Shown here piece after piece: positions 7,468-13,400 of a stretch of 64,000 nucleotides of DNA; position 1 is the first letter of the stretch; each line of letters begins with the position of its first letter. The notes under the pieces are model-generated. The model saw only the letters and a list, made by a program, of their open reading frames with translations. It did no database searches and was not told where the DNA came from. This DNA is from Anaeromyxobacter sp. (GTDB taxonomy: Bacteria; Myxococcota; Myxococcia; Myxococcales; Anaeromyxobacteraceae), in contig JASGJN010000026.1 in assembly GCA_049840735.1 (NCBI GenBank), forward strand, positions 128,001-192,000, read 5' to 3'. The position numbers and the translations under genes were made by a program.

Positions 7468-10400
7468 GCGTCCGCCCCTGCCGTGGCCGCGCGGCGGAGC
7501 TCCTCGGCCGAGGCCGGCGCAGGCACCTCGACCGTCCGGTAGCCGGAGAGCTCCAGGAACACGTGCCCTTCGGCGTCCACCACATCGGCGTCGAACCCCT
7601 CGCCCGGCAGCGGACGGACCTCGGCGAAGCAGGGGCCGCTGATGCCGCCAGGAGGCGCGTGGAGCCGGAGCGAGCCCACCGCCGCCGGCAGCCCGAACGC
7701 GCCGCGCCGGACGAGGTCGTGGATCCCGGCGGTCTGGAAGCAGAGCTCCAGGAGCCGCGGGAAGGTCCGCTCCAGCGCGTCCGGTGCGGCCAGGTTGGGC
7801 CCCAGGCCAGCGCGGAGGACGCCCACCGCCCCGCCCGCCTCGACCCGGACGCCTTCCAGCACCTGGTAGGCGGGGCCGTGGAAGTAGACGCGGTAGACGG
7901 CCTCGCGCCCCACCGTCAGGGCCGGCGGCGGCTGGAACGCGACGGCGCGCGGGGGCAGGGCGGCGCGCTCGACCAGCACGCAGCCGCGGAAGTGGAGCCG
8001 CTCCTGCGCGGGCAGCCCGGGCTTGGGCTGCAGGCGGGAGGAGAGCTGCACGTCCACCAGGAGCCCGTCACCCGCGCCCGGCCGCCCCACGGCGACGAGG
8101 TGCAGGGTGAGCGGCCGCAGACGGTGGAACTTGACCGGCTGCAGGAACTCCAGATCCCGCAGGCCGGTGACCACGTGCCCGGGGCAGAGCACGGTGGCCA
8201 CCTGGGCGAAGATCTCGGCGCCCATCACCCCGGGCAGCACCGGGACCCCGTCGATTTGGTGGTCCCGCAGGAAGGGCTGCTCGTTCGGATTCGAGGCGGG
8301 TCTCGACCAGCAGCCCCCGCCCCAGCGGCGCACCGACAAGGTGGCCCACCAGCGGGAAGCGGGCGGCGTGCTCCCGGAGCCAGGCCTGCGCCCGGTCCAG
8401 GTCGAGCCCGCCGGTGGGATCCCACTCCGCTGCCAGCGTGCCCAGCCGGCCGCCCACCACGATCTCGTCGGCGGCGCCGGACAGGAGCTCGCGGCGCACG
8501 GTCGGGATGCCGACCTCCGGATCGAGCATGTCGATGCCGGCCGCCTCCATGATCTTCGGGATCGAGCCGCGGGTGGCCATCCCGATCCCTCCCCAGGCCG
8601 TCCAGTCGATGGCCACGGCGCGGGTGCCGGGCCGCGCCCGCCGCAGCCAGCGCGACATGGCGCAGAGGCAGGCGTTGGCGGCGGCGTAGTCGGTCTGCCC
8701 GGCGTTGCCGAACCGGCCGGCCACGGAGCTGAAGACCACCGTGGCGCCGAGCGGCAGGTCGCGGGCCGCCTCCAGGAGCGCGTAGAACCCTTCGGCCTTG
8801 ATGTCGAAGACCCGGGCCCACTCCTCGTCCGGCTTGTCCGGCAGCGCGCGGCTGATCTCGATGCCGCCGGCGTGCAGCAGCGCGTCGATGCGGCCGCTCC
8901 GGGTCCGGACGGCCTCGATGGCCGCGCGGACCGAGGCGTCGTCGAGGAGGTTCGCGACGTGCCAGTGGGCGGTGCCACCGGCCGCCTCGACGCCCTCGAC
9001 CGCGCGCAGCGCCGCCTCCTGGCGCTCGACCGCCAGGAGGTGCCGGTCGATCGCCACCGGGGTCGGCTTGTCGCCCCGGGCGCGGGCCTCGGCGATGAGC
9101 GCCTCCTTGAGCCGCTCCCGGCCCTCGCGGAGGAGTCGCACGTGCGGGTCGTCCGCCGGCGGCGGCGCCACCAGGTCGAGCAGGTGGAACGTCCCGCCGG
9201 TGGCGGCGGCCAGGTCGGCCACGATGGCGCTGGTGATGCCGCCGGCCGCGCCGGTCACGACGAAGACGCTCTCCTTGCCCAGCGCGAGCGCGGGGCTGGG
9301 CGCCACCGGGCGCTCCTCAAGCGCGACGGACCAGCGCTGGCCGCCGTGCCGGCCCACCTCGACCACGCCCGGATCGCCCAGCGCCTCCGCCAGCAGCAGC
9401 TCGGCCGCGGCGGCCCCATCCGCCTCGGCGCCCAGGTCCACCACCTTCACCAGCGCCTCGGGGCGCTCACGCTTGAACGCCTTGACGAAGCCCTGGACCG
9501 CGCCTCCCAGCGGCGCGTCGGTGCCCTCGTCGCACAGGCCGAACAGGCCGCCGAGCCGCGTGCCGGCCACCAGGAAGGTGCCGGCCGGCGAGACCGCCTC
9601 GTACAGGGCGCGCATGGTGACGGCGAGGTTCTTGACGGTCACGCGCGTGCGATCGCGGAAGCCCTCCAGCGAGAGCGCGTCCAGCCGCGGCTCGGGGTCG
9701 AGCGCCGGCAGCCAGAACACACCGTGGACGGGCCCCTCGGACAGCCAGCCCTGCACGGTGGCGACCAGCTCGGCCGCCGGGCGCCGCGCGTCCAGCACCA
9801 GGGCGATGACGCCGCGGGAGGCCAGCAGCGCGGGCAGCGGGCTCTCCGCGGCGCCGACGCCGATGACGACGCGGGCGCCGGTGCCGAGCTCGACGCCGGT
9901 GGCCTTGCAGAGCGCGAGCGGCGGGCGCAGCACCGGGGTGGCCACCCGGCGCGGGACCTGGTCGGCGTTCGCGAGCGGGCGGGCGCTGGCCCTGGCCGGC
10001 CGTGGCGGGGCGGTCGCGGTCGCGGGCGCAGCGGCGGCCGGAGCAGCGGGCGCGGCCACCGGGGCGTCCAGCGCGGGGGTCGCGGCCTGGTCGGTCCGGT
10101 GCTGGTACACGAACCCGATGACGTGGCGGAGCGTGGGGAAGTCGCGCAGCCTCAGGTTCTCCACGCGCGGGATGGACCAGGCCGCGCGGACGGCGGCGAA
10201 GGTCTCGGCCTGCTTCACGGTGTCCACGCCCAGGTCGGCCTCGAGATCGAGGTCGAGGTCGAGCAGATCGGGCGGGTACCCGGTCTTCTCCGAGACGATC
10301 TCGATCACGCGCGAGCGGACCGGGTCCTCCTCGTCGGGCCCGGACTCGGTGTGGGCCGCGTGGTGGGCCGTCAGGGCGTCCAGGACCGGATCCGCGGGCG

Positions 10401-13400
10401 TGGAGGCCGAGACGGCAAGCGGGATCGCCACGGGGACGGGCGCGGGCGCGGATGCGGCCCCTGGCGCAGGGGCCGCCGCCAGGTCGGGCCGGTGCTCGCG
10501 GACGAACCCGATCACGTGGCGGAGCGTGGGGAAGTCGCGCAGGCGCAGGTTCTCCACGCGCGGGATCGACCAGGCCTCGCGCACGGCGGCGAAGGTCTCG
10601 GCCTGCTTCACGGTGTCCACGCCCAGGTCGGCCTCGAGATCGAGATCGAGGTCGAGGAGGTCGGACGGGTAGCCGGTCCGCGCGGACACGATGGCGATCA
10701 CCTGCTCGGCGATGGGATCGGTGGCCGGCGCCGGCGGCGGCGCGGGGAGCGGCGCCACGACCGGAGCCGAAGCAGAAGCTGGCGCCGGAGCGAGGACCGG
10801 AGCTGGAGCCGAAGCCGGGGTCGGAGCCGGAGCCGGGACCGGGGCCGGAGCAGGAGCAGGAACTGCTGCTGGCGCCAGCGCGATGGCCGGGGCCCGGGCG
10901 AGCTCGGGAGCCCGCGCGGCGCTCGACGCCACCCGCTCGCCCTGAGCCTGTCGAAGGGCGGGCGGCGGCGCCGGGGCCCGCCGGACCGGGCCGGTGCCCC
11001 AGGCCCAGGTGGCGGGGGCGGGGGAGCGGCGCGGGGCGCCGGTGGAGACCACCCGCAGCGTGCGCTGCACGACCTCCGTCTCGGCCTGGTCGATGCCGGT
11101 GACGGCGTCGAGCCAGCTGCGGTAGACGTCCGGCCTGTCCATCCGCTCGGTGCCGCCCGGGATGCGCCGCGTGAGGGTGAGCGCGATCTGCGAGCCGAAG
11201 CCGGCGGCCAGGTGCAGCGCGAAGTTGACCGGGTAGCGGCCCCCGCGGCTCAGGTTGAGCGGCCCGAGGTCGGGGTCCTCCTCGCGGTGGTTCGGGACCG
11301 GCGGCACGATCCCGTGCTCGAGGATCTTGACCGCGACCACGTCCTCGACGCCGACGCCCATGGCGTGGCCGGTGAACCCCTTGGTGTTGGAGATGACGAT
11401 GTCCCCGGCGGCGCCGCCGAACACCTTGCGCAGCGCGGCCACCTCGGCCGACGCGCTCCCGCCGCGGGCCGGGGTGAAGGTCTCGTGCGACATGAAGACC
11501 AGCTCGCCGGCGAGCGTGCGCCGGTCGAGCCCGAAGCGGCGCTCGGCCGAGCGGACCAGGCTCTCCACCACGCCGGCGACGTGGTCCACGTCGAGCCGGG
11601 TGGCGTGGAAGGCGCTGTTGCGGGTCTCGCTGGAGAGCAGCTCGGCCAGGCCGCGCATCCCGCGCTCCTCCACGGCGTCCTGGCTCTCGATCACCAGCGC
11701 GGCGGCGCCCATGCCGATGAGGGTGCCGTGGCGGCGGCGGTCGAAGGGGAGGGCCGCCTCCTCGACCTTGTCGTCGGTGGCGGCCGCGCCGGTGGCGAGG
11801 AACCCGGCGCCCACCCACTCCAGCAGGTTGTCGCTGGTGGCCGCGTCGGCGGAGACCACCACCACGCGCCGGCAGCGGCCGGTGCGGATCCAGTCCTCGG
11901 CCATGGCCACCGCCTGGGCGGTGCTGGCGCAGGCGGCGTTGCAGAGGGCGCTGGGGCCGCGGGCGCCGATGTACTCGGCCAGCTGGCTGTGGCCCATGGG
12001 CAGGACCCGCAGCAGGAAGCGCCGGTCGAAGGCGTAGGGCTCGCGGCGGAGCTCGTCCTCGACCTCGCCCAGCTGGCGCTGGATCTCGCCGAGCGCGTCC
12101 GGGTCGCGGGTGCGGGCCCGCAGCGTCTCCAGCCCCTCGCGCCGGGCGAGGCGCGCCTCGTAGCGGTGGTAGCGGGCCGTCTCCTCGGCGAACCGGTCCA
12201 TGCCCGGGAAGGCGGAGCCGAAGATCACGCCGGTCTCGTCCCGCATCGCCTCCGGCAGCAGCCAGCGATCGGGCAGGAACGTGCCGCGCGAGGTGCGGCG
12301 CCAGGCCTGCACCAGCGGGATGCCCGCCTCGCGGAGCGCGTCGATCCCGGCGGCCATGGCGAGCTGCGTGGTGATGTCGAGCGCCTCGACCAGCTTGGCG
12401 GGGACGCCGTACTCGGCCGCGAGGTCGAACGGGCCGGGGCGGCCGCCCAGCTTCAGGACGTCGTCGGCGTCCTCGATGGTCTCGAAGCGGCCGTCCCCCT
12501 CGGCCGTCTTGACCACCCGGGTCACCTTCTTGCGGGCCATCAGCTCCCGGAAGCGCACCGGCAGCAGGTCGATGAGCTGCTCGCCCCGCAGGATCCGGTC
12601 CACGTTCCGTGGATCCATGACCGGCTTCTCCGGCCCGGGGAGGCCCAGGCCGCAGCCGGTGATCACCACCGAGCCGGCCGGCGGCGCGTTGCGGTCGGGC
12701 GCGGCCGACGTCGCGGGGTGGGACGGCATCCCGGCCAGGCTCCGGGCGAGCACCTGCGCCAGCTCCTCGATCCTCGTGTTGGACACGGCTTCGCCCTCCG
12801 CCTCGCCGTCCACCGGGACGGCCGTTTGCTGTTCGATCCGTGCAGCGACATCCACCCCCGGCGCCGGCTCGGCGGGCAGGCCGTGACCGGCGGCCCACAG
12901 CCCGCACAGCGCCTGGTTGAAGGCGGCCAGCTCCCCGAGCTTGGGGTGGTTCGTGAAGAGCGACACCAGCCCCTCGCGCCCGCCCAGCACGTCGTCCACG
13001 AAGCCCTTCAGCGCCTTCTTCGGCCCCACCTCGACGAACGTCCGCACGCCCTCGCGCCAGAGCGTCTCCAGGCCGCGCGCCCACTGGACCGGGGAGGCGA
13101 TCTGCTGCACCAGCAGCGCGCGGATCTCCTCCCGCGTGGCCGGGTAGGGCTCGCCGGTGACGTTGGCGATCACCGGCAGCCGCGGCGGCGCGATCCGCAG
13201 CCGGTCCAGCACGGCCCCCAGCGCCTCGGCCGCGGGGGCGACGATGCGGGTGTGGAAGGCGTGGCTGACCGGGAGCCGGACCACCTCCAGCCCCGCCGCC
13301 TGCAGCGCCGCCATGGCGCGCTGCACGGCCGCGGTCTCGCCGCCGATCACGGCCTGGCGCGTGCTGTTGAGGTTCGCCGTCACCACGTAGCCCTCGACGC

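Follow-up and report, generated by a model that had tools for sequence, protein, structure and literature searches.

The window analyzed here is a 64,000-nucleotide stretch of Anaeromyxobacter sp. DNA (GenBank assembly GCA_049840735.1, contig JASGJN010000026.1, positions 128,001 to 192,000). It encodes a multidomain synthase whose acyl carrier protein (ACP) domains have threonine at the phosphopantetheine attachment site, a position at which serine is, to our knowledge, treated as universal. The open reading frame (ORF) 15675-8068, on the minus strand, encodes a ketosynthase, an acyltransferase, a second ketosynthase, two ACPs and a ketoreductase, in the order KS-AT-KS-ACP-ACP-KR. A dehydratase (DH) domain and the gene for a phosphopantetheinyl transferase (PPTase) follow on the same strand, and a gene for an acyl-CoA dehydrogenase-like flavoprotein lies upstream.

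An earlier, sequence-only reading of this DNA had reported the motif DLGVDTVK in both ACPs, with ACC at the attachment codons, and the sequence bears this out. ACP1 (10489-10728, minus strand) and ACP2 (10108-10350, minus strand) both contain DLGVDTVKQ, and the attachment-site residues of the ORF are Thr1688 in ACP1 (codon ACC at 10612-10614) and Thr1819 in ACP2 (codon ACC at 10219-10221). In an AlphaFold model the threonine is the first residue of helix II (pLDDT 89). The model confirms the ACP fold: its best structural match is 4ihf_G (Z 12.6, rmsd 2.2, 76 aligned residues), and the top 50 matches are all carrier proteins or complexes with carrier proteins. By sequence alignment the threonine is matched to the DS serine of the PigH ACPs (PDB 5y08). 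The serine that PF00550 places at the start of helix II is absent here, and threonine occupies its position.

The attachment residue across the family

A GTDB scan with ACP1 indicated at least 508 stretches encoding such domains; the 79 loci retrieved belong to Chloroflexota, Acidobacteriota, Myxococcota, Actinomycetota and Spirochaetota, among other groups. In these loci, together with a second locus of the same genome as the window, threonine occupies the site in 285 of 290 aligned ACP domains; the other five are truncated, and none has serine. All four threonine codons are in use (ACC 130, ACG 124, ACT 18, ACA 13). Because one of the six search patterns included threonine, the count was redone on sets selected by their KS domains and blind to the ACPs, sets that comprise top matches only and overlap in kinship. 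The best 120 relatives of the second ketosynthase (KS2) gave 371 threonines, no serine and five truncated domains; 65 additional proteins gave 184 threonines and two unresolved domains; and 80 metagenome loci picked by patterns from the first ketosynthase (KS1) gave 128 threonines, three serines and three other residues. Among 300 genomes of the window's phylum, five of the five other genomes with a KS2 match also have threonine. Threonine at the phosphopantetheine site is real and family-wide, and a pattern in which homologs carry serine with this copy as the exception was not seen.

The same family-wide threonine, present in the KS-selected sets as well, excludes a sequencing error or one-off mutation, and the earlier argument that threonine in both copies is no random error is upheld by the 285 of 290 domains. 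It is scarcely credible that an artifact in the wider sense (a sequencing error, an altered genetic code or RNA editing) yields serine in the protein. The assembly is indeed indel-prone, but several phyla and hundreds of independent assemblies show threonine, encoded by all four codons, and sequencing error is thereby refuted.

A wider view comes from the best 150 of 5800 cluster representatives, of which 119 have threonine only, 28 serine only and one a mixture, two being unscored by the pattern. The serine-only proteins lack a KS after the AT, being PfaA-like or of the KS-KS-AT type. In a quick tree built from 77 KS1 rows, two changes account for the threonine/serine label, one of them from a partial long-branch protein, and a single origin of the threonine trait is therefore plausible on comparative grounds. 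The residue after the site differs as well: isoleucine follows serine in 151 of 151 serine motifs (S-I), and valine follows threonine in 399 of 412 threonine motifs (T-V), which could amount to moving a single methyl group in compensation. The number of ACPs per synthase ranges from 1 to 7 among the relatives. In two proteins both residues occur together, the carriers of P0081 being Ser, Thr, Thr and those of L191 Ser, Thr, Ser, which we count both for modification of the threonine and against strict orthogonality.

Two other places for a serine carrier were considered. A serine displaced to another position in the ACP is excluded, as the alignment has no other conserved serine column. A cryptic serine carrier elsewhere in the synthase or in the dehydrogenase is also rejected: the invariant serines that were listed map to KS, AT and KR, and Pfam finds no extra PP-binding domain.

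Some relatives (P0047, P0090, P0106, P0028 and P0288) contain ACP-like repeats in which the whole attachment motif has decayed, interspersed with intact threonine carriers; one decayed repeat, in P0028 and its PPTase-fused cluster member P0288, still has serine. At the level of sequence, these repeats show what an unconstrained repeat looks like, and the threonine copies retain the motif. Some family members have a shuffled order, with threonine ACPs ahead of KS1, in the KS1-AT interval or in the AT-KS2 interval (P0044, P0086, P0098, P0099, P0111 and P0151, and the metagenome loci L137, L139, L140 and L164).

The second locus of the source genome (G000:C20:767800-780000; L001 7807-19980) has two threonine ACPs. 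Its layout is KS-KS-AT-ACP(ELGIDTVKQ), a second ACP (ELGIDTVRQ) in another frame, and then KS-KS-KR-DH with a PPTase of its own; it resembles P0087 and is unlike the Type R clusters discussed below.

Threonine-type proteins also carry archaeal labels, which are NCBI names attached to metagenome-assembled genomes: Candidatus Heimdallarchaeota for P0028, P0285 and P0287, and Thermoplasmatota for P0058, P0109, P0111 and P0113. Several archaeal-labelled proteins have a fused PPTase. P0288 belongs to a Heimdallarchaeota-labelled cluster, and the name of P0306 begins "Candidatus Kari". On a 66-kb metagenome contig, L134 (9905-19162) is a fused threonine synthase with carboxylase genes upstream and a Rad51/RadA-family gene downstream. 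We regard the archaeal-labelled threonine megasynthases as candidate type I fatty-acid-like synthases.

The clustered phosphopantetheinyl transferase

The PPTase gene (6650-7467, minus strand) encodes an Sfp-fold (group II) enzyme with a Pfam ACPS match, in which GxD and KExxxK are intact and the catalytic residues are D131, E174 and K173/K178. The group II signature, an Asp-Xxx-Glu magnesium triad with KExxxK, was recognized, and all 57 threonine-linked rows of the alignment have the magnesium Asp and KExxxK. The model of a relative, L054, has the two-domain Sfp fold, with 4MRT, AASDHPPT and PptT as best matches; against Sfp itself (4MRT) it gives E 3.4e-12 and TM 0.72 at 17% identity. Identity to Sfp-type chains overall is 14-23%, and a phmmer search of the PPTase against the PDB returned no match.

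A PPTase is present in 65 of the 79 loci, and in 12 of the best 150 representatives and 11 metagenome loci it forms the C-terminal domain of the threonine-carrier synthase itself. From comparison of sequences, this fusion is the strongest argument that the PPTase would act on these carriers. In two phylum samples, the genomes with strong ACP matches are also those with strong PPTase matches (8 of 201 and 7 of 151), in searches where both profiles were built from threonine loci and each sample contains its own seed genome. All 15 genomes carry threonine, and the weaker-scoring loci that were fetched carry serine, one with an extra alanine copy. The expectation that the threonine motif co-occurs with a PPTase clade thus holds for presence in the same genomes; the PPTases themselves are not cleanly monophyletic. 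The source genome encodes five PPTases; two adjoin threonine-ACP loci. Another of its PPTases (G000:C7:256581-257891; L093) groups with that of the window on a quick tree (support 96); in its surroundings, C7:240000-274679, no synthase domain was detected.

Could the threonine domains instead be unmodified docking or structural repeats, with the clustered PPTase arming a serine carrier in trans, such as host AcpP? Substitution of serine by threonine abolishes modification in canonical ACPs, the source genome has a normal AcpP-like motif and serine-type polyketide synthase (PKS) carriers, and a FabA/FabZ-family gene is present in eight of eight threonine-positive Chloroflexota genomes (a tally that includes the unpublished G331 and G466, which enter into nothing else here). 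We nevertheless find this explanation improbable. The family profile found no free-standing serine ACP in the 79 loci, although a distant one could escape it; the source genome has three other PPTases; and the PPTase is fused to proteins that carry the threonine domains. Moreover, the recognition motif is invariant in the threonine copies and lost in the decayed repeats, and the number of carriers varies from 1 to 7 among threonine synthases, as it also does in working polyunsaturated fatty acid (PUFA) synthases.

A different possibility is that the threonine holds the acyl chain itself through an oxygen ester, or else some other group, with a PPTase-fold enzyme of altered chemistry. The active-type second KS and the distance of this PPTase from solved ones, with no phmmer match in the PDB and 14-23% identity to Sfp-type chains, leave some room for it. 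The retained magnesium and coenzyme A (CoA) catalytic set of the PPTase, and KS, AT, KR and DH motifs of the thioester chemistry type, make it very improbable. An ACP-independent mechanism, which the sequence-only reading had offered as an alternative, is disfavored as well.

Catalytic domains, operon partners and the state of this copy

The remaining domains of the synthase, all on the minus strand, look competent. KS1 (14266-15666) has the triad C213-H347-H385, and AT (12976-13875), presumably of the malonyl type by its motifs, has GHSLG with S703, R728 and HAFH. KS2, the second KS-like domain, lies between the AT and the ACPs (11176-12675) with the triad C1249-H1397-H1437, and a KR didomain (8476-9960) has S2317, Y2330 and N2334. 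In 41 long synthases (40 from the loci and that of the window), the KS1 triad is present in 40, with one gap, and the KS2 Cys-His-His, the AT Ser/Arg/His and the KR Ser/Tyr/Asn are each present in 41 of 41. These tallies come from the alignment; strict regular-expression surveys overlooked many rows (35 of 120 unmatched in one). The assertion that the KS, AT and KR motifs are intact is thus borne out, save for the one KS1 gap, and, since KS2 retains Cys-His-His throughout, the enzyme has two active-type KS domains. The PKS-type DH (7464-8327; Pfam PS-DH) was located by tblastn with an intact homolog and lies in a frame other than that of the main ORF.

Upstream of the synthase is the acyl-CoA dehydrogenase-like flavoprotein (15760-17386, minus strand; Pfam Acyl-CoA_dh). 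Its relatives are about 545 residues long, and the window protein, read from 17379, is 70% identical to the L003 homolog. Of the 60 loci whose upstream flank reaches 2 kb or more, 59 have such a dehydrogenase ahead of the synthase. A biotin carboxylase is found in 53 of the 79 loci and an electron transfer flavoprotein (ETF) in 21. Upstream flank is available for 66 metagenome loci; the dehydrogenase occurs in 33 of them and a fused FabK/PfaD-like enoyl reductase (ER) domain in 10, never the two together. This mutual exclusion suggests that the dehydrogenase acts as the enoyl reductase.

Replacement of the type II fatty acid synthase (FAS II) by the threonine-type system is excluded for Chloroflexota by the FabA/FabZ-family genes noted above, which are present in all eight threonine-positive genomes and in 99 of 201 overall; as judged from gene content, FAS II is primary in that phylum and the threonine-type system secondary.

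The reading frames of this copy are broken in places. The ORF 15675-8068 goes out of frame near 8285, and the DH runs on in another frame to end at 7464, where its stop and the PPTase ATG (7467) overlap. The claim that the PPTase gene overlaps the PKS stop is therefore right about the overlap (7464/7467), but the stop lies in the DH frame and not in the ORF 15675-8068. The PPTase has a frame break near 6845-6875, and the likely start of the dehydrogenase is one base out of frame, next to a G run, a probable third frameshift.

One explanation is that this copy is a decaying pseudogene of a functional family. The breaks in synthase and PPTase, the probable one at the dehydrogenase start and the replacement of a PPTase Glu by Gly would fit, and KS2 was not found in 13 same-genus genomes searched, in a stricter first look. 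However, two of the breaks are at short G/C runs, and the homologous stretches have no in-frame stop. Frame switches also affect other genes of the assembly, with 4 of 25 testable matches (one being this synthase, and some possibly paralog artifacts) and a split carboxyltransferase. The second magnesium ligand of the PPTase, moreover, is reported as non-essential in the relevant part of PMC4103896. On balance decay is unlikely, and the frame breaks are likely assembly errors.

Three neighboring features, all on the minus strand, complete the picture. An ORF of 192 residues with hydrophobic stretches (6035-6613) comes immediately after the PPTase; it has no match in Pfam or NCBIfam and is not recurrent among the related loci in codon-based gene calls. 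Phosphate acyltransferase and acetokinase-family genes (19381-21345) lie upstream of the cluster, the latter short as called and possibly frameshifted. Further upstream is a HipA-like kinase gene (22807-24123; Pfam HipA_C).

Proposed mechanism and relation to known systems

In the reading that we prefer, and consider likely, the threonine of these carriers receives phosphopantetheine from the cognate PPTase. The suggestion of a threonine-pantetheinylated carrier system has good comparative support: threonine is fixed, the catalytic domains are intact, and an intact PPTase is linked or fused to the synthase. The locus would be an iterative, PfaA-like secondary-lipid synthase of the form KS-AT-KS-ACPn-KR-DH. 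The presumably co-transcribed Sfp-fold PPTase would move 4'-phosphopantetheine from CoA onto the threonine hydroxyl, and the AT would load malonyl units, supplied in many relatives by the clustered acyl-CoA carboxylase, on the threonine-linked arm. Condensation would then fall to the two active KS domains and processing of the chain to the KR and DH; the enoyl intermediate would probably be reduced by the upstream acyl-CoA dehydrogenase, together with ETF in loci that have it. A long acyl chain, reduced for the most part, is the probable product.

Several observations weigh against this reading. First, the corresponding substitution is disabling elsewhere. E. coli ACP S36T, a standard dead control, is described as unmodifiable and non-functional in the relevant passage of PMC3340395; acylation of an E. 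coli S-to-T ACP failed according to the corresponding passage of PMC13343975; and a spinach ACP with Ser38 changed to Thr lost function, as cited in a passage of PMC9310384. Second, in the PPTase of the window Gly replaces the second magnesium-ligand Glu, which is retained in 60 of 62 rows, and both synthase and PPTase carry frameshifts in this copy. Third, 14 of the 79 loci have no PPTase in range, of which five end 300 bases or less from the synthase and nine have 2.8-7.4 kb of flank, the space in several of the nine being taken by a carboxylase gene. Fourth, because both profiles were built from threonine loci, the co-occurrence of ACP and PPTase is partly built in. Fifth, both the dehydrogenase and the ER domain are missing upstream in 23 of the 66 metagenome loci for which that flank is available. 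Finally, on the quick tree six serine-linked PPTases are nested among threonine-fused ones (support 85-87), and no convincing PPTase residue distinguishes threonine from serine linkage, in a comparison with only seven serine-linked rows.

This last point bears above all on orthogonality. A strictly threonine-only PPTase clade was not recovered, the serine-linked rows being intermingled. The best candidate signature, K33, occurs in 48 of 57 threonine-linked, 0 of 7 serine-linked and 2 of 6 other rows. L198, a serine-only relative with a fused PPTase, also weighs against strict orthogonality. The idea of an orthogonal PPTase therefore stands insofar as the enzyme travels with the threonine synthase; a clean threonine clade and a convincing residue do not accompany it, and P0081 and L191 mix serine and threonine. 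In another serine-type, PfaA-like cluster (L094 2072-8254), the second subunit has an ACP with alanine at the site (LGVDAIKR) and a fused PPTase.

Within the modification reading there is a sub-case, touching only orthogonality, in which the threonine is pantetheinylated but not privately: broad PPTases such as Sfp would also modify it, the ACP context making the threonine reactive. The intermingling of threonine-linked and serine-linked PPTases in the tree, the lack of a diagnostic residue and the location of the T-V versus S-I swap in the ACP all favor it, but the cognate PPTase is tightly retained although other PPTases are present, and we consider this sub-case rather unlikely. The PPTase probably takes both threonine and serine, and ordinary PPTases may reject threonine, giving a one-way private channel. 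Put in full, O-phosphopantetheinyl-threonine would be a natural, undescribed modification of one old FAS-like megaenzyme family, found in several bacterial phyla and, apparently, in Heimdallarchaeota and Thermoplasmatota archaea with fused PPTase; its PPTases would accept threonine, which ordinary ones reject, and so provide a private carrier channel. We lean toward this complete proposal, with less confidence than toward the modification itself.

Among known systems, PfaA and the PUFA synthases (TIGR02813) share the KS-AT-ACPn-KR-DH core and near-identical tandem ACPs. The window synthase scores 880 bits against TIGR02813, below the curated cut-off of 1010, when scored on the frameshift-truncated ORF. 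It differs from PfaA, which has serine carriers (DSIKR; LGIDS motif, versus LGVDT in both copies here) and no second KS after the AT. PfaA works with PfaB, PfaC and PfaD, none of which was seen here. The PPTase resembles Sfp (4MRT) in fold and in its Asp/Glu catalytic triad and differs from it in the low identity given above; the characterized Sfp-type PPTases that we know of act on serine. Fungal FAS I is a megasynthase with a fused PPT domain, and in carrying its own PPTase it resembles the 12 fused threonine proteins, but it has another domain order, an AcpS-type PPT and a serine carrier.

The closest described system is the Type R secondary-lipid synthase cluster of Shulse and Allen (2011; PMC3098273), whose relevant sections place it in Koribacter, Solibacter, Roseiflexus and Elusimicrobium. 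From five genomes they give the order KS-MAT-CLF-ACP(3-6)-KR, where MAT is a malonyl acyltransferase and CLF a chain length factor, plus a PPTase and a product that was unknown. As in those clusters, there is a single pfaA homolog with KS-AT-(KS-like)-tandem ACP-KR and a PPTase gene downstream of it; some Type R members have carboxylase genes, and GGRP and LSISH of the window PPTase fit the x(G/D)xP and hShxH motifs given there. Roseiflexus- and Elusimicrobia-labelled relatives have threonine. There are also differences. First, the domain called CLF in the paper has Cys-His-His here (41 of 41, and also in Roseiflexus-labelled proteins), possibly a difference of label. Second, the published Type R passage names neither a DH nor an upstream dehydrogenase. 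Third, the window has two ACPs versus the published three to six; relatives span 1 to 7, and the published range therefore reflects five genomes. The same source describes Type S (Desulfobacterium autotrophicum HRM2; ER-KS-CLF-AT-KS-ACP3-KR) and Type T (Clostridium thermocellum; KS-MAT-CLF-ACP3-KR), which, compared by domain order only, match the threonine-type architectures P0079 and P0121.

The word "threonine" is absent from the main text of PMC3098273 and from one spreadsheet supplement, a check that left the supplementary figures, alignments included, outside it. In open-access PMC and bioRxiv, with subscription journals outside the scope, we found no natural threonine-pantetheinylated carrier or threonine-accepting PPTase, and a search for literature on the proteins of C. 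thermocellum and other named members, for which some locus tags were guessed, found none. The cluster type is thus already known; for its threonine carrier we found no description, and a prior mention is possible.

If this reading is correct, a threonine family that keeps, and in places fuses, its PPTase would overturn the serine rule and add a new covalent linkage. Rules that score serine-less ACPs as inactive would then misjudge several hundred clusters (at least 508 GTDB stretches). The need of a heterologous host for the cognate PPTase may explain the lack of a product for a cluster catalogued in 2011, and a threonine-accepting PPTase/ACP pair, if real, would serve PKS engineering and protein labelling as an orthogonal tool. 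Finally, the fused Heimdallarchaeota-labelled versions would bear on fatty acyl synthesis by the archaeal relatives of eukaryotes.

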